Shown here piece after piece: positions 3,142-58,463 of a stretch of 64,000 nucleotides of DNA (the stretch's first letter is position 1; each line of letters begins with the position of its first letter). The stretch is from an uncultured virus (IMG/VR IMGVR_UViG_3300032011_003340) (Duplodnaviria > Heunggongvirae > Uroviricota > Caudoviricetes), in the IMG/VR virus record IMGVR_UViG_3300032011_003340; one strand, 5' to 3'. Made by a program: the position numbers and the translations under genes. The notes under the pieces are model-generated. The model did not search any database and was not told the DNA's origin. It was given only the letters and a program-made list of their open reading frames with translations.

Positions 3142-3173
3142 TTATTTATTTTTTAATTGTTATTTATACTTTA

Positions 3174-6100
3174 TTATTTTTTATTACAAGGATCATTTTT
3201 AGCATCTTCTTTATCTTTTTTAGCAATAGCTTCTATTGCTTTATCTTTGCTGCTAACTATCATTTCAAATCCATCTTTTCTTGTAATTACAAAAAGATTT
3301 CCTTGTTGAGTAATTGTATAGTCACCTATTTTATCAGGTTTTTTAACAGTCTCTTTAATAGTTTCTTTAGTAGTCTTCTTAGCAGTTGCTTTTTTACCTT
3401 TGGTGGTTGTAGTTGTTTTAACACCACCTCTTCTTTTTTTAATAAACGCAGCTAATGCATCTGCATGTGAATAATATCCTTTTTTTGCAGTAGTTCCATC
3501 AAGTTGTTTAACAGATTTAGGTTCATAATAAAGTAATGTTTTTCCATCTAATTTACCAGAATCTATTTGTTTTAATATCCAATTTCTTTGATCCTGTTCA
3601 AAGTTTTTATACTTAGAATTTCCATTTAACCACATTGTATAAGCTGCTACTGCTTCTTTAATAGTACCAAATCTAATATAGTTATCTATATTTGTTTTTC
3701 CTTTTCCTTTTCTAAAAGTTCCTAGAAATGGATTACCAAAATGACCATATAATTTTGTACCTTCTTTCCATTTTCTTAAAGTATTTACACCATATTTAGT
3801 AAAGACATTTAAATTTTGCATTCCTATTTTACCTTTATAATCTTTCCAATCTTTTCTAACTACTACTTTATTTGGTTTAAATTCTTTAGTAGTAGTTGTA
3901 GTAGTTGTAGTTGTTACAGTAGAAGGTGTAAAAGTTTTTCCAGATAAATTTGCTTTAGTTTTTTCATATACATCTCTAACTGCTTGTTTACCTGCTTCAG
4001 TTATATTTGATGAAGTACCTACACCGGCAAAATTCTTTGTAAGTATTGGTGTATCTATTTTTATAAAATCGTTTTTATTAGAATCCCATGTATACCAACC
4101 TACAGGATAACTAGAATTTTTAACTTGATTAAAGACATAAACTTCTTTATCTAAATTTATACCAAGTTGTACTGCTACACTTGTTCCCCCATTAACTTGC
4201 GGAACTAAAGCTTTTTTCTTAACTGTACCTCTACTTAAAGTTATATTGGCCCCTTTTGGTATAAGTGAACCTACAGCAAATATACCATCTGCATTAACTA
4301 CTTGTGCATAATTTCTTATTTTCTTTTTATTTCTTGTAGTATGATTGCTTTCTATACGACCCATTTGTCTTTCAGCTTTTGTTACTTCTTTTTGACCTAT
4401 ACCTTTAGCAGGACCTTTTGCAACAACTTCTCCTACAAAATCATCAGCATCTATTTTTTTTCTACCTTTATCTTTAAGTTCTTTAGACTGTAATTCTTTG
4501 TCGGAAGATAATAGATAATGTCTACTATCTGACATTTCGTATTCTTCCCCTGTAATATCCCAAATTGTATCAAAACCTTTAGCACCACCGGAATGATTAG
4601 TTATTTCAGACATATTTGTATAATCAACCTCAATAGGTTCTACAGTAGGAGCTAATAATTCATCAGCTATAGTTATTGTATTACTAGTTCCTTCTTCTGT
4701 GCTTTCAGCAGTATCACCAAATAGTTCTAATTGCATATCACCTCTATTAATTCTTAATTTTCTAGATGCTCTAGACATACCAACGTAATTAATAGCATTC
4801 ATTTCAGTATTGAATACTTTTCCATCTTTTTTCAAAAATGTATAATCTAAAGATGTATTTTTAGCAACATTAGCTAAATCATAATAAACATTTGGTATTG
4901 TTAAACCTTGTGATTTATGTACAGTAATAGCATATCCATAATCTATTCCTTTTTTAATTGATAATCCATTTATCTGTAATTTATAAAAATAATTTTTTAA
5001 TTTTGTATTTTCGTTTTTATTCCTTGAAGAAAAATCACTTTCTTTAACCATTTTGTCTTGTTTAGGATCAAATACATAATTATCACCTAATTCAATTTTT
5101 TTAAACTGAGATGTTAAGTCATCTTTGTCAGCATAATATTCTCTCCAAAATTTCGAGTTTCTGTCTTTTATTGGCGTTGCTTTTAATTTTTTATTAAGGT
5201 TGTGTATTTGTCTAAATATATTAGAAACTATATTATTATTTTTATCAAAATCTTCGTTTGTTAAATCAAAGTTTAATGAATCAGTATCTGATAATTGATA
5301 ATATTTTGCTGTTGTAATTTCATTAACACCTTCAACTTCTAAATCTTTTAATTTTTTTAATAACTGACTTTTAACAGTAAGTACTCTTACAGAATCCTCT
5401 TCTTTAATATTAGTAATTGTATATTTAACAGCATTCGTTAAATCATTTTGACTTAATTGTTTATTTTGATATCCAACATATCCAATAACTGAATCTCCAA
5501 CACGTGTATATTTACCTTTACCTAAACTTGCCCTAACTTGTGCATTTAAAGATTTTACCCTTTCATTTGAATATGAAATAATAGTTGTATCTTGTTTACC
5601 ATTAGTTTCATCATTTTTAAAATCTTTTAGATATTCTTTCTCCCAGTCTTCTGTTTTTTGAAATTTAATAGAATCATGATCTTTAACATAACGAGGAACA
5701 TATTCTGTATCCTCATGCATTTGACCTAACAAATCTAACATAGGACCATCTTTTTGTCTATAAACTGTTGTTAATATTGATTTGTCTTTACTACCTTCAT
5801 TAAAAATAGAGGGTATGTTTTTATAAACAGGTTTTGTTTTTGTTGCTTTATTATCATCTTTATTTTTATCTTTAGTTCCAACTGCTGGTATTTGACCGGA
5901 ATCACCCATAAAAATAATTTTAGTGGAAGATTTTTTAGCTGCTGCTTTTAAATTTTTAATATCATTATTTGTAAATCCTTCTTCAAGCATGGAAGATTCA
6001 TCAATTATAAATAATCGACTTTTTGGATCATCATAAAGTAAATTATAAATTTTATATCTAAATTCCCATTGTTTAGTATTTTTATTTTTATTAATTGAAC

Positions 6101-9100
6101 CACGAATTGTTGAAGGTAAATTTTTATTACCTAATTTAGCAGTTGTTAAAGCTAAATATGCACTAGCGGCATTTGTTGGAGCAGCATAAGCAATTGTATA
6201 AAGAGGATCACCTAATTTCTTTTTCATATATTGTTCCAATAATCCTATTATTGTTGTTTTACCTGTTCCAGCTCTACCTTCTAAAGTCCAATCTCTTTTA
6301 CTTGGATCTTTCATGAAATCAATCATGTCTTCTAATGCCTGCCTTTGCTCATCACCTAATTTAAAATCTGTTTCAATTTCAACACCATCGTATGCAAAAA
6401 TACGATCTTTTTGATCTTTTGTTTTAAACTCTGTATCAACATAATATTTTTCAACTAATTGTTTTTGAGAAATTCCTTCTTCAGCAAAACTACCAAGTAA
6501 GATTGCAGCTAATGCATTATTTTTAACTTCTTCAGAAGTAGCATAACCTTTATTAATAACATATTCAGCACCTTGTTTTGCTTTTATCATGTCATCTAAA
6601 GTTTTATAATCAGAAGGATCTATTAAATCTTTCATTAATTTTTGTATTTCTATAGCTTGAGTTCTTTGACTTTCTTTTGAACCTGTTACCCAACCTTTTC
6701 TTTCAAAATCTCTAAATACATCTTTTTTTACTTCTCCTATTTCATCACTAGTTTTATCAATTTCTTCAGTAACTTCAGTAGTTGTTTCTTGAGATACATT
6801 TTCATTAAGTTCCGCTCTAACTTCCATTAATATTTTAGGAAATAATTTACCCCATTTTTTCTTATCTTGAGTATGAGATAGTTCAATATCATTTGTAGCT
6901 AGTAATGAAGCTAGTGCATTAGGATTTTGACTAAATGATTCCAGTAATGCTGATTTCATAATCTCTTCAGAATCTCTATTCCAATTCTCAATTCCTTCTT
7001 TACTCAATGGAATATTTCCACCCATTTTTTTAGCCTCTTTACCGGTTGCGTTAGCAAATTTCTCAACCATATTAAGTCCTTTTTCAGTAAGACTCCAACT
7101 TGACATTATGTTACCAGGGTCATCCTGTTTCCAGTAATCACCTGGAGACTTTCCTGTTTTATCATCAAGATCAATATTCCAAATTTTAGCCATTTGGAAT
7201 AATCCTTCAACATTTTTAAATGTTATTGAATCTTTTTTAGTACCCTCTAAATACCAACCAATCATTTCTGTTATGTTCTCAGTATATAATATTTCATCAA
7301 AGTCTTTCTTGAAAGTAATTGGTCTATTAGCAAAATTACTTAAATGAGAGTTTTCATTATCGCCACTATAGATATTAATTTTACCTTCTTTATTTATTAT
7401 AGGTTGTATAACTGTAGACGAAGGATCAACCCCTTCATCTACAATTGTTTCAGATCTATTTAACAAACCTGTATCAAACCAGGTTTTACTAAAGATAGCA
7501 TTAGGAGGAATAGGTCCTGCTAAATTAAATAATTTTATCATTTCTTCTCCTGTATAACCATTTAAAGATTTATTATTTAATTCATTACTATAGGCTACAT
7601 AACCTTTAATATTAGGATTTTCTCTAAGATGTTCATAAACTTCTTTAATACCTTCTATAATTTCATCTTCAGGCATTCTATTAGTTTCATCTTTACCCCC
7701 AAGCTTTCCTTGAACAGTAACTATTCCCCATGATTCACCTTCATTACCTTGCATTAAACCAGTTTCACCTTTAACAGCCCATTTTTCTACAGTTCCATCA
7801 GATATTGCTGAAATTTGCGCTACTGTTCTTTTTTTATCCATAGCAGCTCCAGCACCTCCGGCACCATGTAAACCTCTGTCATTGGCTCCAAAGATGTACA
7901 TTTCATCATCTTTTAATTGAGTTATCTTACCTTCATAAAAGTCTTTCCATTCTTCTTGTTTTTTCCTTACTTTTAAGTTTCTTTCAGAAGGAGCTAAAGA
8001 TAATTCATAACCCATTAAAAATCTACCATGTCCTCTTATTATACCATCTCTATCTTTAAAAACTTTATAATTTGTAGGTGTGTCATCAACTGGATCCCAT
8101 GATGAAGCTTTACTAATAGTAAGTTTTTCAGATTTACCTTTACCTGTAGGTTTTGGCTTAACAGCTTTTCTTTTAAAACTATTTGTTTCAGGGTCATAAA
8201 TAGTATGAATAAATCTACTATATTGATTTGTATTAGAATCTGATTTAATAGTAAGTTGATTATTTTTTTCATTTTTTCTTAATGTTGGAGTAAACTCAAT
8301 TGTTCTTTCTAAAAATTGCTTTTTAAATTCATTTAAAATATTCTTTTGTGTATCAGGAGTTAAACTATCAAATTTATCGAATTTATCTTTTAGTATTCTA
8401 GTTACTTCTTCATTAGGAATTAAGTTACTAAAAGTAATAGATGAATTATGTTGTACACCTGATTGATTAAATGAAAATCTAATTAAATCTTCAAAAAGAT
8501 TAGTTCCATTTTCTTCATCAAATTCTTTTATTTTAATAAATTCATTTCTAAATTCATTTTCTCTACGAACATCTAACTTAATAGCTTTAAATTGAATTGT
8601 TTGAAATGCAGGGGTAGAACCAATTTCTGACTGTTCTTTTAACCCATTTTCCCCATCATAACTTGTATATTCAGTATTAGATTGAAAACCAATTAAAGAT
8701 TTAATTAATTTATTTCTTCTCAATCCCCATAACTTAAGTATACTTGCATTGTCACTTGTAATATCATTTTTATTTTTAATATTGTTTAATTCATATATAA
8801 TTTCAGATAATGGAGCTTTTTCACCCCTTCTATTTACATATATGTTTTTATCATTTTTAATAAATAATTCTTCAAATGCAACACCAAGAGAAAATTTATC
8901 AACAACTTTTTTACCATCTTCTGTTTCATTAAAATTCATTGTTGCAAGTGCAGCAATTAAATCATTATTGACAGTACTTGCTAATTTAGATTTAGCATCT
9001 TTTGTTAATGTCATACTGCCTTCAACAACATCAATTAATTCTCTTTTAGCTTTACTAACAACAGGATTACTTTCAAAATAATATAATGGTTCAAACATTT

Positions 9101-21100: not shown

Positions 21101-24100
21101 CTAACACTTCTCCAAGTTCATTAAGAAGCATATTGTCACCCATAGTTTGAGTATACCTATCTGGTTCTCCAGGTTTTGATGTTTTTACTATATTAGGAAT
21201 ATTAGTAAATACTAATTCATAACCATCTTTTTCTAAATCATCGTGGGTAGTAGTATCGTCTAATGGACGCATATCACCTTCATTATTCATGTAGATACGT
21301 TGACCTTCTTTATTAGTAATAATAGCGTATAAACCACCTCCAAATTCTTTATCTGCATCAATAGTAGTTAAAACTTTTCCTGTTTTATTTTTAGTTTTTG
21401 GATCTACTTGTATTATTTTAACTTTATTGAAAGGATCATCCGGATTTCTTTCTTCTCTTTCACCAGTATCTTCATTAATTACTTTAGTTGGTTGTACAAA
21501 TTCTATGTTGAAATCTTCCATATTATCAACATTTAAATTCATAAACTTCATATGACGTATCTGATAGTCAACATCAACTAATTTAGGTAATTTTGTTTTT
21601 GCATCAAACATTACTTCTTTACCATCCCACTTAAGATGAGTAGGTACGGTACTTAATACTGTTGATTTACTATTTATCAAATTATCATCAACACCTTTCA
21701 TTAGAATATCATCATCTTCTAATGTATTGGTATTTTTATCTTGCTCTTTTAAAGCATTATTTATTTTTGTATCCTCCGCTGATAATTTAAATTTCTTATC
21801 ATTTAAAGCTTTTTTTGAACTTTCTATTATTTCATCATTACCGGCAAGTAAAGCTTGACGTATTTCTAATTCATCTTCAGCATCATTTTTTCTTTTAATT
21901 AAAGATTCAAGACGTTCACCTTCTTGTGATCTTACTAAATTAGTCCAATTAAGCTGTCCTTCTAATATATTTAATTGTATAGTTTCTATACCTTCTTTTG
22001 TCCAAGGGTTTTCTAATGCATCAGGATCTTTATATTCTTCTTCAGTTAATATAATTTCATTATATTCTTGTATTTTTGAATCTATATCTGCAATTTGATT
22101 TTCAATAGATTCAATTTCATAATCAATATCATAAAATTCATCAGAAACTAATTCATCTAAACGTAAATCTAAATTATTTTTTTCTGAATTTAATTGTTCT
22201 ATTTTTTCTTGATTTAAATCAATCTCATCATAAATTACATTTACTTGATCTTCATCTTCTTTTTGTAATTTAAGTAATTCCTCTTCTTTATTTAAAAGTT
22301 CTTGTAATTCACCAGGTTTTCTTCTTTTATGTATTGCAATTTTTGTTGCTACTTTAATACCTGTTCTTTTATCACCACCATAAATTACTTTCAATCGACC
22401 TTGTACATCGTTTAATTCTGCCTGTATTACATTATTTCTTTTCTCTCTATCAATATCATTAATGATTGCATTTTTTCTTTTATTTTCTTCTTCTAATATA
22501 TATATGTTATTATCAACTTGACTAATTTGATTAGATATACCATCCCAATTTAATTTTTCTTCTATATATTTTTGACTTTGTTTTTTATTATTAACTTTTT
22601 CTAAGTCAGCTTCTAAAGTATTTCTATCTTTTATTATTTGATTTAATTTTAACTGAGTACCGCTTGCATTTAAAAGACTCTCTTCAAAACTTTCTAACCT
22701 TAAAGATTCATTTATTTTAGCATCATATTTTTTATTTATTTCATCTTCAACTTTTGTTTTAAATGCTTCAATAGAAGTTTCTGTTTTAAATGGTTTTGAT
22801 TTTTTTAAACTTAAAATTTTAGCTTCAGTTAATTCTTCATCTACCTCATTACCAAAAAGATCATTTTCCTCAACTAATGTCATTAGTTTAGTACTACCAT
22901 CTTTATATGTTATAAGTCTAAATAATTCTTCAGAACCATCTTCTAGTTTTTCTTTATATGTATCAACTGTATCAACTATATTATTAGCATTATTTTTTAG
23001 TTCTATTTCTCTTTCTTTTTCTATATTCTCTCTTTGTGAAGAACCAATATCATTAATAGCTTTTTTTATTTTATTTTTGCGAAGAATTAATGTTCTTGGT
23101 GAAAGTTCAAGATCTTTATTTTCAATAGCAGCTTTTAATTCTTCTTGTAATTTAATTAAAGCATCTAATTTACTTAATTCTATTTTACTTAAATTAGAAT
23201 CTTTTTCAAGTATTTCTATTTCATTTTTAAGATCTCTTATTATTTTATTTTCACCTGTTTCTGGATCAATAGTACCATTGATCATTTCAATCATTTTATT
23301 GATATCATCAACTTTAATATCTTCTGACGAAAATGTATTAGCAAATTCTTCCCATCTTTCAACAAATATATCTTCAAATTCTAAAAGTTTATTATATTTT
23401 CTTTTATTGGCTTGTAATTCTAGATCAATAACCTCTACTGATTTTTTTAAATCATTAAATGCTTTTATTTGATCTAATTCTTTATCATCAATATCTTTTA
23501 TTAATTGTTGAATTTTATTAAATGCACTTTGTTCAGTATCAGTTACTTTTCTATCAATTCTTGATAGAATATAAATAGTACTTGCATTTATATTTTCTTC
23601 ATCTTGTATTTTATTTCCTATTTGTTTTTTCTTTTTTCGATCATTTTTTCTTATTTTATAGATTAACTTTCGTTCTTCTATGTAACGAGATAATTCACTT
23701 TCCCATTGATTGAGACTTTCCTGGATTTCTTCAGTAGTCATTTCAGTATCACCTGCTAATTTTACAAATTTAACATCATCAGCATTTTTCCTATTTTCAA
23801 TGGTTGCTTTTTCTAAAGCCTTAGACATCCTTGATAATCTCTCTGCAGTTTCAGGAGATATTGTAATAGTTTCTCCATTGGGACCAACAAAATCTGTAGA
23901 ATTTGCTCTTGTAATACCTGCATATTTTAAAGGATTTTCAAGTATTGCTTTTAATTCATCTAAACCAAGTTTACCTTTATATTCAAATTCAGTATTATAA
24001 GCTGAATCAATTAATTCTTGTTCAAATCTTGTATGAAAATCTTGAGATAACCCAAGTTCATTTATTATATCATTAACCAAAGAAGATAAACTATCAGGAT

Positions 24101-27100
24101 TTTCATTATCTAATATTCTATTAATAGTTTCTTCATTTTCAAAATATTTACGTCCAGCTAATGTATCTTTTAGTTTTCTATATATTTTTCTATTCAGTTT
24201 AATATTTCTATTGATATCTTTAAGATTTATATCAAACTTTTTTAATGATGCATTTAGTTTATCTAAATCATCTCTTAATTGTTGTATAGGTGTAGCTAAT
24301 CTATTTAATTCCTCTCTAACAAAATTAATATCTTTTTTTGTATTATCAAGAACGTCTACATATACTTCATATCTTTCAATTTCTTTCTCATAATAACTTC
24401 TATTAGAAAGAATATTTTTTCTTATTCTTTTAGCTTCTATTAGTTGTTTATTTAATTTAGTTATATGACCTAAATGTCCCCTAACAGATTCTTTCCTGCT
24501 TGTTTTTGTAGTTATTTGTTGACGTTGTTTTTCAATGTCATTTTTTATCTTTTCAATGTTATTATCTTGCTCTTCTATTTGTTTTTCAAAATCAACTAAT
24601 TTATTCCACATTTCAGTTAATTTATCTTGAAGTTCTTTAGTTTCTTCATCAAAAAGTAACTTATCTCTATCATCAATAAATTGAGCTAAAATTAAATTAA
24701 ATTGATTTGCAATAGGATCTGAATGATCTACAAGCGATGTATCTAAATCAGAAGAATTCATAAAGTCTCGTAATTCATTAAAACGAGCTATATTATTACT
24801 TATTTCTATTTGTTTATCTATTAATTTATTTCTATTTTCATTTTTATTAATATAAATTTCAGCTTTCTCTACTTTTAATTTATCTAATGTTATTTGTTTA
24901 TCCCAGAAAGCTTTAATAAATTCTAACTGAGCTTCAGCAACAAGAGCACTATCTTTTTCACGACCACGTAAATTTGCAATAGCATCTAAATCAGCTATTT
25001 CAATTGCTTGTGAATCAGACAATTTTATTTTTATTGTAGTTTCACCTTTTTCTTTTTTAGTAGAAACAATACCAATTGATTTAAATTGATCATCAAAATC
25101 TACATTATCATCAGTAGGAAGTGTTGCAATAAATTCAAGAAATTGTTTTCCGTATTTTTCATTTTTAACTTTACCAATACCTTTTATTTTTAAAAATTCA
25201 CTTTCTGTCTTAGGCATTTTTTTTGCCATTTCCATTAGTGTTTCATCTTTAGCAACAGTATATGCTGGCTTACCAGCAGCAAGATTTTTTCTAAATTCTT
25301 TTAATTTTTCAAATCTTAAATCGGCAGGAGAAAGTACTTCAAATATTTCTGTATTTCTTTCATGTTCACTATCTTTTCCTATTACACTATAATTACCATC
25401 ATTATCCTTATAATATTTTTTACTAAGTTTAGTATCTGTTAAAGAAATAGATTCTTCTTTTACTGAATCCATATTTTGAAATACAGTAAAAGAACCATCT
25501 TCATTATCCTTAATAGTATACATCTTAAATCTATTAGGAACCGGAAGTTTATTTATTTTATCTTCTAATTTTGATACTTTAAGTTGAGCTTCAACTAATT
25601 TACCTGTAAATAAAGGTTCTCTTTTTTCGTCATTACCAACTTCTTCTTGAATTTCAAGAATAGCTTTATCTAATTTAGCTACTTCTTTATTAATAGCTTT
25701 ATTAATAAGTATTTCTTGATTATCTAACTGCTTACCTGTTAATGTATCGTCTAAAGCAGGGCGATCTAATATTTTATTTAATTCATTTAATTCTTTAATT
25801 AATTCTTTTTTACGAAGAACATATTCATCTAATTTATCAATTTGATCATTTGATCTTTTTGTTGTAGATGTGTAAGGTTTTCTGTCAATATGAACAGAAG
25901 AAGTTAAAGATTTTTTCTTTTCATTTAACTCATTCAATTTAGTTAATAATCTACCAACTTCTTTTTTAGATTCTTCTAATTGTTTTTTATTTTTTCTATT
26001 TATATTATTTTTATATTCTTCCCATTCTTCCTCTTTACCCGGTTTAATTTGATTTTCGTAAAGTTCTTTATTAGTTTCATTAATTAAAAATGGCTCTTCA
26101 TTTTCAGGTGTAAATGTATATTTACCATCTTTAAAATCAACTCTGCCTCTTTTACTATTAAATAAATTAGTTTTACCCTCTTCACTATTATCCCAATAAA
26201 CAAATCCATCTCTATCTTGAAGTTCCATTAATTGTTCCATATGTAAATTAAAATAGAACTTTCTTCTTTTCTCCCTATTCTTTTCTTGTTCTCTTCTAAT
26301 TAATTTAGCTAATTTTTCACCACTAACTAAATCATCAAATTCTTCATCAAGTTCAAGTGATTTTTTAACAGCGGCTAATTTTCTATCATATATGTCACTT
26401 TGTTCTTTAGTACTAAATTCATCTAAACCTAATTTTTCAATTCTTTCATCGAAAGGTTTAGATATTTCTTTTTCTCTTACCTCTATATCTTTTAAAGATT
26501 TACTAATTTGATTTAATAAATCTTCTCTTTTTTGTAAACTCTCATCTAAATCTCTTTTTATATCTTTTTCAGGTACTCTATCAAATTTATCAAGTTCATC
26601 TTGTAATTGATCCTGTTTCTCTTTTAAGTCTATTAATTTTTTATCAGAAATTAACTTTTTATTTTTTTCTTGTTGTATTTTAAATGCTTGATCAAATTTA
26701 AATTTATTAGATACACCATCATCATCTATTTCATTTATATCAATATCATTTTTTTCTGCATGATTTTTAACAGCTAATTTATGTTTTTCTTCTGCTTCTT
26801 TATTTAAATTTTCTATATCTCTATTTAATAAATCATAACTCAATCTATTATTAAATGCAGCGTGTGCAATGGAATTATCTAATTTAGTATTATATTCCAT
26901 CCAACGATCATAGTATTCATCAATTTTTACTATTGATTCTTTAGCTTGTTCTTTATATTCTTTACTATATCCTCTAGATTCAGCTTCTTCTGGACTTAAT
27001 GATCCTATTTCTTCAAATATATTTACTAAATGATCTTTAGTATTACTTTTAAATGATTCAACAGCAGTACGAGCTAAAGAAAATTCTTTATGTTTATCAG

Positions 27101-29012
27101 CCCTTTCTCTTAACTGTCTTTCACTCATTTTATCGAACTCTTTAGTAAGTTCTTTTTTCTTTTTTTCTAATTTATCTTTAGATTCTTGTGTATCAAAATC
27201 AATTGTACCTGAATTAGCCATATCAATTCTAACCATATTATCAATGATTTTATCTTTTTTAGATCTATCCCTAGTTTCAATAAAATCATTAATATCTGCT
27301 ATATTTTCTTCTAATGCAGCTTGATATTTTGCACTTGCAATAATACCTGCACTGTCCTCAACGCTTTTCTGCCATGCTTTAATTGGTTTATTTATTTGCT
27401 CATATTCTAAATCTTCTAATTTATTTGCAGATACTAAACCTTCTTCATATTTTACTATTACATTTCCTTTTTCATCTAATTTTGCTTTTTGCTTTTTTTC
27501 TTTTACAAAATTACCATCTTTATCTTTTTCAACTTCTGATTCTACATATTCATTAACTAACTCACCTTCCTCATTTTCAACCATTACATCTTCCATTTCA
27601 ACCATTGTTTCACCAGCTCTAAACTTAAGTGAACCATCAGGATAATACACATTTTCTTTATGTGTTTTTGCAACTTTTTTTCCAAGTGCTTTACTTGCTG
27701 CACCAAAAGTTACTTTATCCATTAGTGAACCAGTTGTACCTAAAGATTTAAATGCAGTACCTGCTCCAACTTGAGTAGTTCCACCCAGAAAACCTAAAAT
27801 AGAAGTTTCTACAACGTCCTTATAACTAGCATCACCATATATATTACCTGTTAAATAAAATTCATCGCCAAATATTAAACCTTTAGATCTTGCTTCTTCA
27901 CCTGTTGCCATTGCTCTTTGAGCTTCTGCTTCAGCTTGTTTTTGAGCAATTAATTCTATATTTTCTTCAGCAACTTCTTGAGCACCTTCTTTTAATCCTG
28001 AACCTAATTCTTTTCTTTTAAAAGATGGTAAAAATGATTCACGTTTGAAACCTTTTACATTTTTAGAAGGATTAAAAAATCTATTAGCCATTGTTAAATT
28101 TAATGCAATATTGGCTCTACTTGCATTAACAATATTTGATGCCGTTTGAGCAGCAACTTGTTCTGCATAGTCATTACTATATCCCATTTCAATAGCTTCA
28201 TTATATACACTATTATATGACTCTGTTGCATTCATCATAGCTGCAGATTGATTCAACATTGTTGATGTAACAACATTTTCTGCCATATCTCCAGCTTTTA
28301 ATCTTTCTCCTATTGCTTTACCAGATTTACCTGATCTTGCTATATTTTCACCTGTACCAATTACTTTACCATGTCGTTTTATCTTTTCTGCTTTTTTAAA
28401 GCTATTTAACCATTTAAGTGCTTGTGCACCTTTACTTACAAAAGCACCTGCGCCCATACCTTGTAACATAAATGAACTTGCACTAGAAGCAAGACTCCCT
28501 CCATTTTCAATCCACCATGCTATTGCACCAGGGCCGGTCATTCCAGCATCTTTTTTCTGATAAATAGGTGCCCATTCATTTGTTTTTTCTTTTTGTTCTG
28601 CAGCCCATTCTGACACACCTTTAAACCATCCTTCATTTGGATCAACATATCCAGGTAAATCTACCATTGATGTAAATCCAGCAGCTGTATCAGTTAAAGT
28701 ATTAAAGAAAAATCTTGCCCCTGCATTTTTTAATTGTTCACCTGTTCCTTGCTTTTCCCAAAGATTTTCAGTATTATATTCTGATCCAATTGTATAATCA
28801 GCACCTAATCTTTCAGCTTCAAGTCTCATACCATGATCAATATTAAGATCTGCGGTAGGGGTCATATAATCACTTATGTATTTTCTTTCTTTTTGATAGT
28901 AATCCCATTCATTGGCATATTTAATATCTTCTGCCATTGATTCTTGTAATTTTTCAGATGCTGCTTCATTATCTAGACTTTTTAAATAAGCCTCCATTTC
29001 TTCTGGATTCAT
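3174..29012 (-). CDS. Giant (8612 aa) multidomain virion RNA polymerase / ejected cargo protein, crAss-like
   Basis: GFRIPNQG..KSGSDFDIDKL (DxDxD of the two-barrel crAss-type RNAP, 11547-11561), EEADAQSY and KHSVFPL; Gly/Ala-rich hydrophobic N-terminal segments; many appended domains (listed below). Confidence 0.9.
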   Translation of the reverse strand: MNPEEMEAYLKSLDNEAASEKLQESMAEDIKYANEWDYYQKERKYISDYMTPTADLNIDHGMRLEAERLGADYTIGSEYNTENLWEKQGTGEQLKNAGARFFFNTLTDTAAGFTSMVDLPGYVDPNEGWFKGVSEWAAEQKEKTNEWAPIYQKKDAGMTGPGAIAWWIENGGSLASSASSFMLQGMGAGAFVSKGAQALKWLNSFKKAEKIKRHGKVIGTGENIARSGKSGKAIGERLKAGDMAENVVTSTMLNQSAAMMNATESYNSVYNEAIEMGYSNDYAEQVAAQTASNIVNASRANIALNLTMANRFFNPSKNVKGFKRESFLPSFKRKELGSGLKEGAQEVAEENIELIAQKQAEAEAQRAMATGEEARSKGLIFGDEFYLTGNIYGDASYKDVVETSILGFLGGTTQVGAGTAFKSLGTTGSLMDKVTFGAASKALGKKVAKTHKENVYYPDGSLKFRAGETMVEMEDVMVENEEGELVNEYVESEVEKDKDGNFVKEKKQKAKLDEKGNVIVKYEEGLVSANKLEDLEYEQINKPIKAWQKSVEDSAGIIASAKYQAALEENIADINDFIETRDRSKKDKIIDNMVRIDMANSGTIDFDTQESKDKLEKKKKELTKEFDKMSERQLRERADKHKEFSLARTAVESFKSNTKDHLVNIFEEIGSLSPEEAESRGYSKEYKEQAKESIVKIDEYYDRWMEYNTKLDNSIAHAAFNNRLSYDLLNRDIENLNKEAEEKHKLAVKNHAEKNDIDINEIDDDGVSNKFKFDQAFKIQQEKNKKLISDKKLIDLKEKQDQLQDELDKFDRVPEKDIKRDLDESLQKREDLLNQISKSLKDIEVREKEISKPFDERIEKLGLDEFSTKEQSDIYDRKLAAVKKSLELDEEFDDLVSGEKLAKLIRREQEKNREKRRKFYFNLHMEQLMELQDRDGFVYWDNSEEGKTNLFNSKRGRVDFKDGKYTFTPENEEPFLINETNKELYENQIKPGKEEEWEEYKNNINRKNKKQLEESKKEVGRLLTKLNELNEKKKSLTSSVHIDRKPYTSTTKRSNDQIDKLDEYVLRKKELIKELNELNKILDRPALDDTLTGKQLDNQEILINKAINKEVAKLDKAILEIQEEVGNDEKREPLFTGKLVEAQLKVSKLEDKINKLPVPNRFKMYTIKDNEDGSFTVFQNMDSVKEESISLTDTKLSKKYYKDNDGNYSVIGKDSEHERNTEIFEVLSPADLRFEKLKEFRKNLAAGKPAYTVAKDETLMEMAKKMPKTESEFLKIKGIGKVKNEKYGKQFLEFIATLPTDDNVDFDDQFKSIGIVSTKKEKGETTIKIKLSDSQAIEIADLDAIANLRGREKDSALVAEAQLEFIKAFWDKQITLDKLKVEKAEIYINKNENRNKLIDKQIEISNNIARFNELRDFMNSSDLDTSLVDHSDPIANQFNLILAQFIDDRDKLLFDEETKELQDKLTEMWNKLVDFEKQIEEQDNNIEKIKNDIEKQRQQITTKTSRKESVRGHLGHITKLNKQLIEAKRIRKNILSNRSYYEKEIERYEVYVDVLDNTKKDINFVREELNRLATPIQQLRDDLDKLNASLKKFDINLKDINRNIKLNRKIYRKLKDTLAGRKYFENEETINRILDNENPDSLSSLVNDIINELGLSQDFHTRFEQELIDSAYNTEFEYKGKLGLDELKAILENPLKYAGITRANSTDFVGPNGETITISPETAERLSRMSKALEKATIENRKNADDVKFVKLAGDTEMTTEEIQESLNQWESELSRYIEERKLIYKIRKNDRKKKKQIGNKIQDEENINASTIYILSRIDRKVTDTEQSAFNKIQQLIKDIDDKELDQIKAFNDLKKSVEVIDLELQANKRKYNKLLEFEDIFVERWEEFANTFSSEDIKVDDINKMIEMINGTIDPETGENKIIRDLKNEIEILEKDSNLSKIELSKLDALIKLQEELKAAIENKDLELSPRTLILRKNKIKKAINDIGSSQRENIEKEREIELKNNANNIVDTVDTYKEKLEDGSEELFRLITYKDGSTKLMTLVEENDLFGNEVDEELTEAKILSLKKSKPFKTETSIEAFKTKVEDEINKKYDAKINESLRLESFEESLLNASGTQLKLNQIIKDRNTLEADLEKVNNKKQSQKYIEEKLNWDGISNQISQVDNNIYILEEENKRKNAIINDIDREKRNNVIQAELNDVQGRLKVIYGGDKRTGIKVATKIAIHKRRKPGELQELLNKEEELLKLQKEDEDQVNVIYDEIDLNQEKIEQLNSEKNNLDLRLDELVSDEFYDIDYEIESIENQIADIDSKIQEYNEIILTEEEYKDPDALENPWTKEGIETIQLNILEGQLNWTNLVRSQEGERLESLIKRKNDAEDELEIRQALLAGNDEIIESSKKALNDKKFKLSAEDTKINNALKEQDKNTNTLEDDDILMKGVDDNLINSKSTVLSTVPTHLKWDGKEVMFDAKTKLPKLVDVDYQIRHMKFMNLNVDNMEDFNIEFVQPTKVINEDTGEREERNPDDPFNKVKIIQVDPKTKNKTGKVLTTIDADKEFGGGLYAIITNKEGQRIYMNNEGDMRPLDDTTTHDDLEKDGYELVFTNIPNIVKTSKPGEPDRYTQTMGDNMLLNELGEVLGQFPAKEWDEVSGNNVITIRGNNYNLTNKDDLLRVKEILKNNIYVKMSKFRENVENELNKDKKVYVEIKDISNGFQLSRSKDEELKIVDDLILDKNNRLIRTTEAKGKNTTVEKRVKNKNGDIIDKQFNVTSGVLYVLKPNNNLVEVTAGKLEQDEVNTTLKLITELLDEQGAFNKQGTYKTNDGELKNVNLVSIGKESKDIGLLNKVLNWTGPTDNKKFSIWISGGRIQFVNKNGEKRHFPVNSIREYIDNDFKKDKITDKFGKQYFDEFLSFLDEKRKHVHFQLIADENIDKEYLHPYLDKETNEIKLTKYDNYREYLATILKSRVITEDELESLGLKIKDKNDNVVYNDGTVGRYMSFSETIIDEKKKPLPLNYLKKDGLFLDEGEYLKYGDEVGRLESNGIDLVWTGEESKNEIILTADNIDDFDFTIEETSGEEGTDEDTGDEDFTPIEKTELPVIDKDDTLEFVNGYINVDTAGDVTLGNFGTRIKVKKIEGNEGLLVHQTFSYLNETYHDFYSIDENGEVELITSKEVIKTIKEIFTLGNEELKLGSELKGEGEREQKRKKLLGREIKSASDFIEYYDKFLEDDPSRFDSNKNDIIQTLNYNNTFINEYLPYLITGKGGEGLLISTRKSNDGKTDLNIFRKKGVKNAGDVAIELKTEKPDSVKKLLADKKFMPTEDNVYSRLIKQIMGDEDTSINYIPHITPDAKFNSNTEAISLSLGSIVRSNKTPKHLGATIAHELIHKLDKKEFKSEHWDKLVNLRDAVGKYLIKNKNKKSIQDLWKETYNDPETGEKINKLAYWLFGKRINQDEFQGILENSVDFKNLTDSETLALEDLESTDGAMKEFFANLMNQREFQELLNDIQISEIKEDLEYTVKRGKKNMFQAFLDVLNDILKSFGVTVGIKKNGVLEEVLIIGAAHYKKAGAFKDIDDKVVYEKSLKSDDDKDKTFEEQINDLNKEIKESIKLADFAKVSDLEAKIKELQAKIVERDKKDDVKTNLTPQEIAYVFSTLDTITKTSADELVKLANQVLNKEITKAEAEAETSPLLIEYLDALLSVRDEKDDGDSDDKLGHSIDRAELDSEIIKNESDNIKIGSYSKEAQDSIKISDDGKIIAIADGMGGAAANFNGIVNARSIATTVTKILAKGGSLDDIILQDLIDNMSDSDLKYFKILKYIAESKKNKVNLKEVTEYIDSLKLKWGLANILKTIAFGVYSGKINEGTSTPSISTTYINVEKTAENTYVITKVGDTQFTIVDKDGNIVKTHGMSASATTGGFGMRYSEKSGEFEFTSSPLHTATIKLLPGQKLIVSTDFIEKESQLKSFNEQYNNADFSLKEFTSAKGNKQDDATFAVIDYVTKPEVKPEETKDDDDGLTDRSSLIFGITANDELNFWGKNKGAADDYLDTLAENELKDILNKTKNLEDLKKEFDTWLNNNDDDWSLNSPEENKIDSVELTNKELKHIKKLLKDKKYDSLSRKLLTTEEKQKLQKDLREDFSEYNETLNDKNKTPEEKIRNTDTMLAILLMDDNVDDKYKIFADKVKQLEEMTVISEQQKSKTVKELSSFYDFKDVKLNQDELDSIMGALTNDVFELFRTNSEALYEKGVNKQKLYAQIRKKQAREDGLGILKKIIERAGWTPDGIDNTKAKKFIDDNTDQGKLILKGDVKFVFDIIQKIKRLEKASNKTEEQEQQLINLNTRLSNIVKVYDNFISRKGPGNNERWNELVRMHITHMNSLGFSIDSETLLDNERSENEVEASKDSAFIKDSTLIDQKSTMPSAIKLLISSLVNEKLNKDWKDSKGEEIFENVRGYLGLPIPNEFNDIYNLLVKKLANKPARLDVIINELNNIFNKEKNESGPGQALKSLVNADTSPLHVLGKKNISDITLNDVRVITQFIQTFSKFAPKFLLATIDKKGHLFFYDANKTRAVEKIVKTWEENFNKIKEDVEKDGVRTRLLPDFLKTFKAETSNIIKSKNKTDRVRNLKKQLSKIGIDIKDMQSYMDNFIKGLEGTSFGDRLTAKDSLLENIDKALNPKDKDGNAKEINHDYNPFKDDNIRGTIMEFAEKLVESSNQSVDNQFMSVDNKSIYAATLNQFLSLSANKMNYGAKKLYEKINGENSDDKKLIIDEKNPLRDEVPHIFNVFTGNSIALKRLSGLTGNNEITTQAVIEVGMFNGLTIKGEPGGEVTKSLDSPDKWAMMISSTMKGHYTFFRAADRGTENLFTFRDIDSGKPIKLYENRDDALDAFYGYLLDEVNAMVQLKNGLGADVKFYKDNGKKFRFFDDISLGTNDSIKDEIIRLIEDGNSFEEIKKDLDKNKENIIQDIKKHFITKAAVTKGKIDKDGLLKEFPENILQENYWVKGENDKLSKKTKLVDGAENMLFRGISPDILSPYTQNVTKDNEKLELNFTNTSKGEIIDELLLDFNLFQTGAYIEQSKIFTGDPAMYKNSDAFFKRMSMINSTKKVSAVDDKNSEGLKIDKIYNETNNFKILYKETKDSKTDKILDFKIKSVNGVDKNGKEIPSELKKLVENFNNTGKWDLNAVLTKKRKTKLTKLLKDSGSTTDSLRLVPGLGYNPDYILSGKKYDGSFDSMIMEDIWALSPLANDDVASLDDSLKELEKPPIRINNDGSVTYYTIIDNNGKPERKPTTPSALRKEFTESFIADGITDETKLAAKVEAYLSPYQNMEEADAQSYATMGMYKEILLRAGDWSDQHQAAYNKVMMGEELSPKEMFLFRVLKTQYAGPLDLSESLMGNETSITKDNQNNNLFIPTGYKHSVFPLIPQLIKGRNLEQLNKILTDNGNGLAQFTTANKFGRKLKENKTNTVYKDGIFEITAPISQKTGFEWFGVQLDQAPKMKNKITAGTQFRKLVLSNLIEMGVPADYLEKGLKQNKRKEDIKKEWDNLSDENKNKKSEFYSIYKEYQDIQGELFKRPLDELIKELDLMGEEKNGEIIRYKIGNRDKLIEIVLKSATDRLVSENVKSSIESLFDEDGYIEQTSSKNKLESILFAIVNSRVVREKRKGEGSPQVAVTFFEKINNKEGKKIKREGISDRIFSNPELRHYIKGKNGDTLPAHCMVGLPKDLLEWVNSEYGGLDEFNKKIDELHDKLDRIEINGEDIKFTKEEKEEFENLKNIITVVGFRIPNQGLQSADYMRVRQFLPTSVGDSLVVPSEMVAKSGSDFDIDKLQVYYANYKKPNKGKDGVWVGPQYIKFLNDSNSTAEDRYDNYIKSFNIPLDEDIKIDIEIFKDEEKSLIGLFKESRDTINTEEYKKIVKEYNENRSKRFEVKEKEFNTGLKEITNTSEVIFYSLPEAIKQKFKNKDFKISGTSLLEKTIEYRAFAKENIAIIEASVESLYGDKKLTKKSTIPSKNKKDNLPILEAIEKLEDLIQTYDDIIEYVGGEKLSDHINNSIDKEFDFKKEALPKIQKSKESNYDDFIKSAKETSDKYSKIVKDAILDYKIDNGAKTLEEFNKLSITKQNDIKALQNRMLELQGKIMSLPYNYRQLMAPVDDTITKDQAWEMRMLNSKEGIERLQVKLEKEREAELIKIIKKSGNAAIKSIITNTGKIIKGNSLSVDDGVIKYNNKEVSLKQITLTDEKNLEYLLALAPKYYALKKAWKTVRNKEMKTKSFSSVADPNVNMEKFIEFLSGKRGVGQTAVHITHHQLAMAANIKYNDDVESYWIFDHNKIDGTASFAGKKDQDGEWISETLSGFVNAYVDIAADPYVFDMNAGNKTANMILMLVRSGASMPWITKFVSQPIIKDYIQAQRVNESLFNKAVGMRIPFKNVIVKQVIEKKYGLDDVYFAKVLGKPENDDNDPKKFIYEINDDADKIIKDDLFKDYHNSEDKAEKERLIIEKDNVYDEAKGSNEQRWRRIKELKDNGLFSEEKLGQYILSNTLTELKEDTGLESISDITPNVYNEVQQYILDMYLEYQRQSKDFQMMIRATAADTKGAQKNMDDNKAWLKEVEEVKFKDRFTNLNKIYEESVISEVHKAVVESVKMFEPLYYFESNPVVSKAKRELIDVVEGSMTLTKDAKSKLASTVNNDLIAALATMNFNETEDGKKVVDKFSLGVAFEELFIKNDKNIYVNRRGEKAPLSEIIYELNNIKNKNDITSDNASILKLWGLRRNKLIKSLIGFQSNTEYTSYDGENGLKEQSEIGSTPAFQTIQFKAIKLDVRRENEFRNEFIKIKEFDEENGTNLFEDLIRFSFNQSGVQHNSSITFSNLIPNEEVTRILKDKFDKFDSLTPDTQKNILNEFKKQFLERTIEFTPTLRKNEKNNQLTIKSDSNTNQYSRFIHTIYDPETNSFKRKAVKPKPTGKGKSEKLTISKASSWDPVDDTPTNYKVFKDRDGIIRGHGRFLMGYELSLAPSERNLKVRKKQEEWKDFYEGKITQLKDDEMYIFGANDRGLHGAGGAGAAMDKKRTVAQISAISDGTVEKWAVKGETGLMQGNEGESWGIVTVQGKLGGKDETNRMPEDEIIEGIKEVYEHLRENPNIKGYVAYSNELNNKSLNGYTGEEMIKLFNLAGPIPPNAIFSKTWFDTGLLNRSETIVDEGVDPSSTVIQPIINKEGKINIYSGDNENSHLSNFANRPITFKKDFDEILYTENITEMIGWYLEGTKKDSITFKNVEGLFQMAKIWNIDLDDKTGKSPGDYWKQDDPGNIMSSWSLTEKGLNMVEKFANATGKEAKKMGGNIPLSKEGIENWNRDSEEIMKSALLESFSQNPNALASLLATNDIELSHTQDKKKWGKLFPKILMEVRAELNENVSQETTTEVTEEIDKTSDEIGEVKKDVFRDFERKGWVTGSKESQRTQAIEIQKLMKDLIDPSDYKTLDDMIKAKQGAEYVINKGYATSEEVKNNALAAILLGSFAEEGISQKQLVEKYYVDTEFKTKDQKDRIFAYDGVEIETDFKLGDEQRQALEDMIDFMKDPSKRDWTLEGRAGTGKTTIIGLLEQYMKKKLGDPLYTIAYAAPTNAASAYLALTTAKLGNKNLPSTIRGSINKNKNTKQWEFRYKIYNLLYDDPKSRLFIIDESSMLEEGFTNNDIKNLKAAAKKSSTKIIFMGDSGQIPAVGTKDKNKDDNKATKTKPVYKNIPSIFNEGSKDKSILTTVYRQKDGPMLDLLGQMHEDTEYVPRYVKDHDSIKFQKTEDWEKEYLKDFKNDETNGKQDTTIISYSNERVKSLNAQVRASLGKGKYTRVGDSVIGYVGYQNKQLSQNDLTNAVKYTITNIKEEDSVRVLTVKSQLLKKLKDLEVEGVNEITTAKYYQLSDTDSLNFDLTNEDFDKNNNIVSNIFRQIHNLNKKLKATPIKDRNSKFWREYYADKDDLTSQFKKIELGDNYVFDPKQDKMVKESDFSSRNKNENTKLKNYFYKLQINGLSIKKGIDYGYAITVHKSQGLTIPNVYYDLANVAKNTSLDYTFLKKDGKVFNTEMNAINYVGMSRASRKLRINRGDMQLELFGDTAESTEEGTSNTITIADELLAPTVEPIEVDYTNMSEITNHSGGAKGFDTIWDITGEEYEMSDSRHYLLSSDKELQSKELKDKGRKKIDADDFVGEVVAKGPAKGIGQKEVTKAERQMGRIESNHTTRNKKKIRNYAQVVNADGIFAVGSLIPKGANITLSRGTVKKKALVPQVNGGTSVAVQLGINLDKEVYVFNQVKNSSYPVGWYTWDSNKNDFIKIDTPILTKNFAGVGTSSNITEAGKQAVRDVYEKTKANLSGKTFTPSTVTTTTTTTTTKEFKPNKVVVRKDWKDYKGKIGMQNLNVFTKYGVNTLRKWKEGTKLYGHFGNPFLGTFRKGKGKTNIDNYIRFGTIKEAVAAYTMWLNGNSKYKNFEQDQRNWILKQIDSGKLDGKTLLYYEPKSVKQLDGTTAKKGYYSHADALAAFIKKRRGGVKTTTTTKGKKATAKKTTKETIKETVKKPDKIGDYTITQQGNLFVITRKDGFEMIVSSKDKAIEAIAKKDKEDAKNDPCNKK
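3435..3800 (-). other. DUF4326-like domain in the giant protein
   Basis: HFGNPF...EAVAAYTMWL...LDGKTLLYY...HADALAAF (the Cys residues usual in this family are absent). Confidence 0.6.
3955..4610 (-). other. SLOG-superfamily (YspA/MoCo-carrier/Smf-like) nucleotide-binding domain in the giant protein
   Basis: NHSGGAKGFD...RNYAQVVNADGIFAVG...GGTSVAV...VYVFNQ...NFAGVGT. Confidence 0.65.
4740..6360 (-). other. SF1B RecD/Dda-like DNA helicase domain in the giant protein
   Basis: EQRQA, GRAGTGKTT (Walker A), APTNAA, IIDESSM, GDSGQIPAV, LTTVYRQ, YGYAITVHKSQG, YVGMSRA. Confidence 0.9.
6800..7380 (-). other. NADAR (YbiA-like) domain in the giant protein
   Basis: LSNFA...F.NVEGLFQMAK...EAKKMG...W...IM...LLESFSQNP..LASLLAT...WG..F.KILMEVR. 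Confidence 0.8.
7480..7930 (-). other. Macro-related phage A1-like domain in the giant protein
   Basis: MYIFGANDRGLHGAGGAGAA...GLMQG..SWGIVT...GYTGEEM..LF...P.N matches the FVFGSNxxGxHGxGAA family pattern. Confidence 0.6.
11547..11561 (-). other. RNA polymerase catalytic loop DFDID
   Basis: GAT TTT GAT ATT GAT in frame (about aa 5818-5822), preceded by the R-I-P motif. Confidence 0.9.
17030..17820 (-). other. PP2C/PPM Ser/Thr phosphatase-like domain in the giant protein
   Basis: AQDS...IAIADGMGG...STT...KVGDTQ...LIVSTDF...QDDATF reproduces the PPM metal-binding motifs in order. Confidence 0.75.
18350..19000 (-). other. Zincin-like metallopeptidase domain in the giant protein
   Basis: TIAHELIH (HExxH at 18861-18875) with downstream EFFAN..N.EFQ..L, as in phage polyvalent-protein zincins. 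Confidence 0.75.
25125..25325 (-). other. HRDC domain in the giant protein
   Basis: RFEKLKEFRKNLA.GKPAYTVAKDETLMEMAKKMPKT.SEFLKIKGIGKVKNEKYGKQFLEFI closely matches the RecQ-type HRDC consensus. Confidence 0.9.
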
Positions 29013-29080: not shown

Positions 29081-30286
29081 TTACTCTGGAAAATATTTTT
29101 GCAATAAAGGTAATATATTCTTATTATATAGTGCCATATTATTCGCAACATAACCTGGGGAAGTAGCATATCCTCCTTGTTTAACAGCAGTAAAATATTT
29201 ATTAGGATCTCCTATACTTTCTGTAGTTCCATGTTTAGAATATCTTTCATTAGAAATTAACTTTATTACAGCTGCAATGCCTTCTTCAGGAGTTGCATAT
29301 GTTCTAAAAGGTGCTCTTACTTTATATTCAAGTTGACCGTTTTTCGTATTACCAGTAGGTCCACAATCTTTACATTCAACGTTATTTGATGCTGTTAATA
29401 TATTTTCTTTTCTTTTTGCTGCCCATCTTTGAGCATCTGCATCATTTTTAAAGTATTCTCTTGTGTATTGTATTGTATGAGGTTGATTTCCATAAGCTTT
29501 AATTCCGCCAAAATTATTGTGTTTACTTGTTAACCCACTTTTTCCCCAATTACTTTCTAAAGCTAATTGAGTTAATAAGGCACCAGCATCTATATTAAGC
29601 CCAGTATCTTTAATTACCTTTTTAATTATTGGATAATATGTTTGAACATATTGGTCATTGCTAGTAATTGCAACGGTGTTTTCAGAATCTTGCGCTTGTA
29701 CTTGTCCAGGAGAATAAATTATCATTTTTCCTTTTTTATTTTTCTTATACACTTTACCTGCAGGTCTATCATTTCTAGCTTTTGTTATATCAATATGATA
29801 GCCTGTACCTGTATTATGATAATATGCACTTGCATTATTTTTTATTAAAAAGGCTTCTCCTGATTTAGTCTTAAAGAATGCCCATAATGCTCTACCCGCT
29901 TTACCATCTTGTCCATCTCTAGTACGTATGTCAACTGAATTACCTGTCATATGTGGACTATCTATCATAGAAGTTAAATTAGTTCTGTATGCCCTTGTAT
30001 TATCTTGTAGTGATCTTAAACCACTTGTAATTATTGCTTTATCTTGAATTGTTAAATCATCAAACATATTTAAATCTCTTGGATCTATATAATTATAGTT
30101 TTCATTTTGAGTAAAATTACTTAAATAAGGTTTTACAGTAGATACTTGTGGGAGATCTGTTGTTGATTCTTTATAATTCTTTTTTTCACTTAGCAATCCT
30201 TGTAACATACTACTCATATTATTAACAAGATTTACTATTGTAGGAGTAAATGTCATTTTAGCACCCGTACCTTTATTAGAAACCAT
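29081..30286 (-). CDS. Peptidoglycan hydrolase: M15-type metallopeptidase plus GH73 (FlgJ-like) glucosaminidase; probably expressed as a frameshift extension of the upstream gene
   Basis: ITSGLRS...SPHMTGNSVDIR...YHID (M15); QLALESNWGKS..NNFGGIKA...FRTY...GGYATSPGY (GH73). This frame stays open upstream of the ATG to beyond 30600. Confidence 0.85.
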   Translation of the reverse strand: MVSNKGTGAKMTFTPTIVNLVNNMSSMLQGLLSEKKNYKESTTDLPQVSTVKPYLSNFTQNENYNYIDPRDLNMFDDLTIQDKAIITSGLRSLQDNTRAYRTNLTSMIDSPHMTGNSVDIRTRDGQDGKAGRALWAFFKTKSGEAFLIKNNASAYYHNTGTGYHIDITKARNDRPAGKVYKKNKKGKMIIYSPGQVQAQDSENTVAITSNDQYVQTYYPIIKKVIKDTGLNIDAGALLTQLALESNWGKSGLTSKHNNFGGIKAYGNQPHTIQYTREYFKNDADAQRWAAKRKENILTASNNVECKDCGPTGNTKNGQLEYKVRAPFRTYATPEEGIAAVIKLISNERYSKHGTTESIGDPNKYFTAVKQGGYATSPGYVANNMALYNKNILPLLQKYFPE

Positions 30287-30492
30287 TGGTGCATCTGGTA
30301 TACTTTTTAATTTTTGTGGATTAGTAGCATATATATCTCCTGTACTTTTATCAGTAAACCATTTATGTTTATTTATTAAATTAGGATTAGATGAAAATCC
30401 TAATTGTGCTTGATCAGCTTTACTTAAATCATCAAATACTTTTCTATCAATTGAATAATTATATTGACCATTCTTTTTTTGTGTTTTTTGGA

Positions 30493-30547
30493 CTACGCCG
30501 GGATTCGTAGCAATTATATCATCTAAGAACCCGGTAGCTGAAAATTT
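30493..30547 (-). promoter_or_regulatory. Putative programmed -1 ribosomal frameshift signal
   Basis: In-frame slippery heptamer A_AAT_TTT (30547-30541); 6 nt later CCGGG pairs with CCCGG in an extended hairpin (30537-30493). Confidence 0.75.
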
Positions 30548-58430: not shown

Positions 58431-58463
58431 TTTTTTATTATTTTTATTGTTATTAAATTGTTA

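Follow-up and report, generated by a model that had tools for sequence, protein, structure and literature searches.

Why should a virion RNA polymerase (RNAP) carry a load of further enzymes? The question is raised by a 64,000-nucleotide stretch of DNA, hereafter the window, from an uncultured virus (IMG/VR record IMGVR_UViG_3300032011_003340) whose source metagenomes are marine. On its minus strand, a single ATG-initiated open reading frame (ORF) runs from 3174 to 29012 and encodes 8,612 amino acids (aa; about 984 kDa) with 0 internal stops, so that the uninterrupted 25.8-kb ORF described by an earlier sequence-only reading is borne out. We put at roughly 0.6 the probability that this chain is an injected chassis that would deliver ADP-ribose counter-defence and template-cleaning enzymes. 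At the base composition of the window, 8,612 stop-free codons would arise by chance with a probability of about 1e-393; the plus strand over the same stretch is full of stops, and the window holds no N letters.

The scaffold of the chain

The core of the chain matches the two-barrel RNAP gp66 of phage phi14:2 (PDB 6VR4). Residues 4195-7007 align with it at E 4e-29 in four collinear stretches, among them RIPNQG...DFDID, and core profiles extend the match to gp66 aa 104-823 and 946-1672. The crAss-type DFDID RNAP named by the sequence-only reading is thereby confirmed, and the motifs HELIH and DFDID lie at residues 3380 and 5818, as it had placed them. Scans with Pfam, PHROG and NCBIfam matched the core to phrog_16227 only and left the N-terminus and aa 2400-3050 unmatched; a single-sequence pattern scan of viral contigs gave no matches. 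Packaging and early transcription are established for gp66 and gp67 orthologues, the sequence record of phi14:2 g066/g067 cites mass-spectrometry (MS) proteomics, and crAss001 gp47/49/50 were identified by virion MS and must partly unfold to traverse the tail (PMC10172136). Since orthologues of this core are virion proteins, its homology to 6VR4 argues for a delivery chassis.

Ahead of the core, the first 400 residues are Gly/Ala-rich, and an iterated profile built on them matches phi14:2 gp67 aa 64-396 (E 7.5e-8 at Z=1000). The N-terminus had been described as both Gly/Ala-rich and hydrophobic; the first part stands, the second only mildly, for the best 19-residue Kyte-Doolittle mean is 1.08 and strong N-terminal transmembrane helices were not found. 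A charged, helical-looking region of variable length follows (Table 1), and its composition suggests a coiled coil. The zincin-like HExxH stands N-terminal to the core in 17 of 22 homologues, in cr118_1, cr109_1 and cr108_1, and occurs in phi14:2 gp65; the region has no Pfam, PHROG or NCBIfam match, and the zincin label rests on the motif. As the zincin is part of the conserved scaffold, the accessory domains number seven.

The chain is a partial fusion of a gp67-like N-terminus, the zincin and a gp66 core, with the gp65-type part outside. Gp65-type proteins gave no BLAST match in the chain; G002, a complete relative with a 178-kb genome, encodes its gp65-type protein (2,323 aa) in a gene of its own, which comes last in the structural operon and lies on the other strand. 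The chain is thus a gp67+gp66 fusion and not a three-way one with gp65. The earlier view that the cargo genes are fused here was right for the gp67-like and gp66-like parts and overstated for the gp65-type part.

How does this compare with known systems? The DFDID two-barrel core, the gp67-like N-terminus and the zincin HExxH are common to phi14:2 gp67+gp66+gp65 and crAss001 gp47/gp49/gp50, and, as in those phages, a C2-like cargo gene lies directly upstream. In phi14:2, however, gp67 (1,797 aa) and gp66 (2,180 aa) are separate, the zincin sits in the gp65-type protein, and gp66 has none of the seven accessory domains. Fusion of crAss RNAPs into "a single huge polyprotein, likely cleaved" has been published (10.1101/2020.03.07.982082), and a review gives one to three subunits of up to about 6,000 aa (PMC10136315). 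A zincin-RNAP chain followed by modules also occurs in the RefSeq proteins cr118_1 gp14 (4,946 aa), cr109_1 gp53 (4,328 aa) and cr29_1 (5,869 aa), the last annotated "DNA helicase"; relative to these, the present chain is at least 2,700 aa longer, adds HRDC and PP2C, and belongs to a marine clade.

Accessory domains and their exchange

The sequence-only reading had counted at least eight accessory domains. Of the seven accessory calls, six are supported; the DUF4326 name is unproven, and the eighth domain of that count, the zincin, is scaffold. HRDC, PP2C, NADAR and the helicase passed curated cut-offs in profile searches. HRDC scores 66 bits against a PF00570 cut-off of 23.8 and matches the RecQ HRDC domain 1WUD (E 3e-9); it is present in the sister contig L006 and in 0 of 22 RNAP homologues. 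PP2C_2 (PF13672) scores 25.9 bits against 24, and the equivalent slot of the relative P0008 is filled by a match at E 2e-29. The Asp residues of DG, GD, TDF and DDAT, which we take to be the metal-binding motifs of PP2C, are common to the query and P0008, and 92-95 per 100 residues of the domain are identical in L006. NADAR reaches 37.7 bits against a cut-off of 35.1 and retains the Glu, Lys, His, Asp and Trp positions that are invariant in 59/59 aligned homologues; a His in its last strand marks the phage type (PMC11125620). The helicase matches AAA_30 (E 1e-17) and the Dda-like phrog_325 (E 2e-43).

The remaining domains are identified with graded strength. The A1S_2505-like domain matches NF049995 at E 7.6e-10, yet with 39 bits it falls below the cut-off of 45. 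A macro fold is supported by its AlphaFold2 (AF2) model (mean predicted local distance difference test score, pLDDT, 73), which aligns with VIA (2AFC) at Z 8.9 and a root-mean-square deviation of 3.6 over 134 aa, with TARG1 at Z 8.2 and with DarG at Z 7.8; the top Foldseek rows are macro domains at E 7e-3, above 0.001. For SLOG, phrog_768 gives E 1.6e-4 with the query and 4e-7 to 3e-16 with 6/6 full-length stand-alone homologues scanned, so that its identity is supported through those homologues; it has a Gly-rich GGAxGxD loop, presumably the SLOG motif. Profiles built from the macro and SLOG alignments matched no solved structure. The small domain near the C-terminus is truly conserved by sequence comparison, and DUF4326 is only a lead for its name: Pfam gave no match (PF14216), Atlas leads of 0.84-0.87 fell below the recognition threshold, and with the structural model 3 of 50 rows were DUF4326-named, at E 0.2-1.5, the best PDB Z being 3.4, which is no proof of a new fold.

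We then turn to how these modules are distributed. A core-only query retrieved 22 RNAP homologues, in which domains were scored with local hidden Markov models (HMMs) built from the query's own domains and blind to other module types such as AlkB or DUF7831; twelve carry no accessory type, seven carry one and three carry two. Conversely, a query with macro plus NADAR, in a set thus selected by the modules themselves, gave among the best 150 of 1,023 matches 64 proteins with lengths of 1,500 aa or more, 57 of which carry the crAss RNAP core (DxDxD seen at the core in 50). This affinity of the modules for a crAss RNAP carrier supports the delivery chassis, as do the module variability among the 22 core homologues and the in-frame strain swaps described below. 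Pfam finds NADAR in 10/10 large proteins checked, nine above the cut-off. Modules lie before the core, after it and once within it (NADAR N-terminal in 18, C-terminal in 32). Across 163 core-bearing proteins, a set biased towards module carriers, seven types occur only here and the next best has four; the longest other core-bearing homologue has 7,127 aa in a word-limited search over lengths of 4,736-15,071. By these comparisons, the chain is the longest and most loaded member among the core-bearing proteins seen here.

Modules recur on other carriers. RefSeq fusions bear a helicase (cr118_1), SLOG (cr109_1) or helicase, DUF7831, SLOG and NADAR (cr29_1), and in Bc03, a cultured phage of Bacteroides cellulosilyticus, a macro module stands behind the DFDID core of WEY17546.1 (2,385 aa). 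A SLOG module also lies inside the N4-type virion RNAP of Klebsiella phage Pylas (L024; aa 981-1163, 38.7% identity, E 2e-27), and the same module in so unrelated a virion RNAP again favours delivery. Stand-alone versions of the modules occur in phages. AlkB is present in the relatives P0045 and P0007, and DUF1848 in P0162. As side observations, an Alteromonas phage (OP481051.1) has a weaker SLOG match, in a gene whose annotation reads RNA polymerase, and Pfam finds PF18760, DUF1848, DUF7831, AlkB, lysozyme PF00959 and histidine phosphatase on related giant proteins (P0195, P0236, P0162, P0264 and others).

The add-ons are exchangeable, being gained, lost or swapped among sister strains. Read placement compared 4 of 22 listed runs over window positions 2500-22400. 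Two of the four, X5 (2018) and X8 (2024), have positions 6790-7409 replaced by 5 letters, a loss of 205 codons that removes NADAR exactly. The sister protein P0228 shows the same loss next to a macro domain with 46-48 of 50 residues identical per bin; in its SLOG, identity drops to 34-53% per 50-residue bin, against 81-92% in the flanks on either side. P0226 likewise has a different SLOG allele between conserved flanks, X5 carries other sequence at the SLOG slot, and P0045 has AlkB at the NADAR slot, in the order macro-AlkB-SLOG-helicase. Read depth in X8 is low over PP2C, which we do not read as PP2C loss. The GC content of third codon positions is uniform across modules except for NADAR (0.18 versus about 0.10), a weak hint. 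Inter-domain linkers are acidic or Thr-rich; the module borders were searched for linkers identical at the DNA level and none turned up, the repeats there being degenerate and either AT-rich or built of Thr codons. This swapping between near-identical strains (X5, X8, P0228, P0226) is what the view of a simply fused cargo had missed.

The exchangeable tail is bounded by a conserved end. A Cys lies within the last 8 residues in 9/9 closest relatives and 3/3 sister fragments, and the gp65-type protein of G002 has its sole Cys at residue 3. Because Cys8609 is conserved beyond the tail modules, these lie inside the conserved chain, and their position ahead of the terminal Cys speaks for a delivery chassis.

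Proposed delivery and its alternatives

What might the chain do? In the mechanism that we propose, the RNAP chain would be made during the preceding round of infection and packaged in the head; it would leave the virion in a partly unfolded state, before the DNA or together with it, either whole or as zincin-cut pieces. Exchangeable modules would occupy slots chiefly between the RNAP and the conserved C-terminal Cys peptide, and their enzymes would be at work before the first phage gene is switched on. ADP-ribose may be removed or bound by NADAR and the macro fold, whether on incoming DNA, for instance against DarT toxins, or in the form of soluble signals; SLOG and the DUF4326-like domain may process signals derived from NAD or ADP-ribose; the Dda-type helicase and HRDC may clear or grip the template; and PP2C may reverse host phosphorylation. 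Recombination would reshuffle the modules as host defences change. We infer packaging of the tail modules, their substrates and their processing.

Published work on related domains is consistent with such a role. Tested phage NADARs reverse guanosine ADP-ribosylation by DarT1 (PMC11825919; PMC11125620), and the retained invariant residues, shared with the AdfN anti-DarTG1 NADARs (PMC11825919), support the delivery chassis in that light. Macro, NADAR, SLOG and DUF4326 co-occur in DNA viruses, where packaged or early counter-measures to ADP-ribose signals have been proposed (PMC9503650, PMC7824862); among the viral NAD+/ADP-ribose counter-systems of PMC9503650 the same set is mostly stand-alone in phages, whereas here it is embedded in a virion RNAP. 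Polyvalent proteins (PMC5512222) are also large and multidomain, combine a zincin-like metallopeptidase with disparate enzymes and have been proposed to act on entry. The present chain shares several disparate enzymatic domains, a zincin-like motif and a variable architecture with them, but its carrier is the two-barrel crAss RNAP, while the RNAP examples of PMC5512222 are N4-type single-subunit enzymes; NADAR, SLOG and HRDC are not mentioned in the text of that paper.

Several points weigh against delivery of counter-defence enzymes. In the macro domain, Val 7100 follows a near-invariant Thr at a position that holds Lys in 23 of 37 homologues, the query's Lys coming three residues later; if that Lys is catalytic, as we take it to be in DarG/TARG1-type domains, the domain here may bind without catalysing. 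Three of the add-ons, HRDC, PP2C and the helicase, do not belong to the ADP-ribose enzymes, and the load as a whole is therefore not accounted for by any one defence target. The closest relatives do without most modules, and the module-retrieved tallies are biased by the modules having served as query. Fused polyproteins have been called likely cleaved (10.1101/2020.03.07.982082), so that the tail could be removed. Finally, if six copies are packed, their mass at 984 kDa each is more than the 5.1 MDa of cargo space estimated for the crAss001 capsid (PMC10172136), against which the larger genome of this clade (178 kb in G002) is a counterweight.

The strongest competitor, which we consider unlikely, is a late role after cleavage. 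The zincin or a head protease would cut the chain before packaging, and the accessory domains would act late in the producing cell, protecting replicating DNA, with fusion serving merely to co-regulate them. The published description of fused forms as likely cleaved, the acidic or Thr-rich linkers, the stand-alone module versions, the action of DarT at replication (PMC11481870) and the position of the G002 RNAP gene on the replication-gene strand all fit this account. It sits poorly with a terminal Cys conserved beyond the modules and with modules found repeatedly on virion RNAPs of two unrelated types, and a late role would be served more simply by a stand-alone early gene.

Somewhat less likely still is that the modules are injected but support transcription, staying tethered to the RNAP and unwinding, repairing or de-blocking its template, with the helicase, HRDC and AlkB at work there and NADAR and macro acting as repair enzymes. 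The helicase, HRDC and the AlkB and DUF1848 of relatives are DNA-handling domains, as this would have it; SLOG, PP2C and the DUF4326-like domain, however, are no template enzymes, phi14:2 gp66 does without modules, and the speed with which modules are gained, lost or replaced by other alleles between strains fits an arms race better than housekeeping.

Very improbable is that the ORF is an assembly artefact of several strains or genes, the chimera that had been raised as a doubt: strain mixtures occur in the samples concerned, none of the pieces listed covers the whole of 2500-22400 and none bridges the macro-NADAR junction (7361-7500), but other joints are bridged repeatedly. A single ORF in the IMG/VR contig L006 matches aa 1-3930 at 86.5% identity, including HRDC, zincin and PP2C. 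An X5 contig bridges PP2C and RNAP (14040-17466), and an X8 contig bridges RNAP, macro and helicase (5871-13726). With 0 differences each, X4 contigs bridge RNAP and macro (7500-8853) and NADAR, helicase and SLOG (4530-7361); X4 dates from the same year as possible source runs and may share their sampling campaign. In P0228, one chain runs from macro through helicase, SLOG and the DUF-like domain to the C-terminus, and the NADAR-skipping joint is not present in X4. With bridging contigs and reads of other years in agreement, the ORF is genuine and not chimeric.

What, then, is new in the delivery chassis proposed here? The crAss RNAP carrier and its fusion are already known, and the module types already stand in public genomes under misleading names. 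We found no description of NADAR, macro or SLOG on crAss RNAPs in the literature covered, outside which lie Yutin 2018 and Fig. 3 and one supplementary file of PMC7886860; a prior mention is possible. What sets this case apart is its length and load, the presence of HRDC and PP2C, in-frame swaps between strains, and a SLOG in common with an N4-type virion RNAP. With somewhat less than even odds, we suggest further that crAss virion RNAPs, and convergently N4-like ones, serve generally as a platform into which ready-made anti-defence enzymes are plugged, chiefly those directed against NAD+/ADP-ribose immunity, with modules turning over by in-frame recombination and carried within a cysteine-coupled ejection chain. 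This protein would then stand at the extreme, and from its strain variants one could read which host defences are being countered. The crAss-like phages dominate in the gut and are frequent in sea water, and part of their counter-defence arsenal may be housed in a protein usually annotated RNA polymerase, helicase or DprA. At 8,612 aa, the chain extends the size of the family beyond the roughly 6,000 aa given in a review (PMC10136315) and puts to the test how much protein a virion can hold and eject. Natural alleles with and without modules, together with the cultured Bc03 and its one module, make the carrier hypothesis directly testable.

Neighbouring genes

Table 1. Features of the giant RNAP chain and its upstream neighbours, in window coordinates.
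Feature	Position	Strand	Basis
Giant virion-RNAP polyprotein	3174..29012	-	8,612 aa, about 984 kDa; Cys only at 5713 and 8609
Conserved N-terminal ejection-type region, aa 1-1200	25413..29012	-	30-43% identity in close relatives
HRDC domain, accessory insertion	25113..25331	-	PF00570 E 3e-18, aa 1233-1295
Charged, helical-looking region of variable length	21813..24965	-	composition; partial conservation in P0002-P0006
Conserved scaffold region	19863..21815	-	profile matches in close relatives; no family match
Zincin-like region, HELIH 3380 and downstream Glu near 3486	18222..19373	-	scaffold, HExxH conservation
PP2C-like phosphatase, accessory	17013..17855	-	PF13672 above cut-off
gp66-type two-barrel RNAP	7992..16430	-	EADAQ near 5325, RIPNQG 5779, DFDID 5818
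Predicted macro-fold domain, A1S_2505-like family	7470..7940	-	NF049995 and AF2 model
NADAR domain with His-type last strand, an in-frame insert that varies between strains	6792..7412	-	profile and invariant residues
RecD2/Dda-like superfamily 1B (SF1B) helicase	4746..6392	-	motifs I-VI present
SLOG (DprA-like) domain, with another allele in sister strains	3942..4619	-	phrog_768
Conserved small DUF4326-like domain, name unproven	3423..3812	-	conservation; Atlas leads
Conserved C-terminal peptide with Cys8609	3177..3230	-	conservation in relatives
C2-like cargo protein, 1,271 aa, upstream	30523..34338	-	position only; same place in L006-L013
Peptidoglycan-hydrolase frame (MepK-like lead and glucosaminidase)	29081..30613	-	PF01832 E 3e-19

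Upstream of the RNAP gene and co-oriented with it lie replication genes for a PolB-type polymerase, primase, DnaB, ribonucleotide reductase, ligase, ThyX and dUTPase. Crass-type terminase, portal, capsid and muzzle genes were not found in the 64-kb window. The replication block of G002 is syntenic with the window, and G002 carries a large terminase subunit (TerL, phrog_6681), a portal (phrog_6547), a capsid (phrog_11589) and a muzzle-like match to phi14:2 g071. G001, a fragment of 14 kb, leaves the RNAP gene uncovered. Between the portal and capsid genes of G002 lies a GroEL gene (L018:11063-12622), which could help fold giant cargo. Over 82-128 kb of G002, the C2-like and RNAP genes are on the replication strand and are convergent with the structural operon, whose last gene is the gp65-type one; two of three RNAP-block genes are on the replication strand in Bc03, and all three are on the structural strand in phi14:2.

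The C2-like ORF gave no significant match to phi14:2 g068, and its C2 identity is without sequence support. Near 30520-30545, the hydrolase frame (510 codons) overlaps it in the -1 frame. The overlap is a candidate programmed -1 frameshift, which would yield two forms of the cargo protein, only one of them bearing a cell-wall hydrolase. L006 has the same C2-like/hydrolase split, with the overlap conserved behind a divergent region, and in L007/L008 the two parts are fused in frame (1,404 aa).

Directly downstream of the RNAP gene stands a full AsnA (TIGR00669 above cut-off; 2140-3141, minus strand), and a second asparagine-synthetase-like gene, class II aminoacyl-tRNA synthetase-like (phrog_29758), lies at 48778-49599 (minus strand). 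A phage gene at 1-1293 (minus strand) ends in a type A sorting domain of the type IX secretion system (T9SS; PF18962), which suggests use of a Bacteroidota secretion system; the host is probably a member of the Bacteroidota. At 57198-59927 (minus strand), an AAA ATPase stands beside a 487-aa metallopeptidase-vWA-like fusion, judged from motifs by eye, and the pair is also present in G002.

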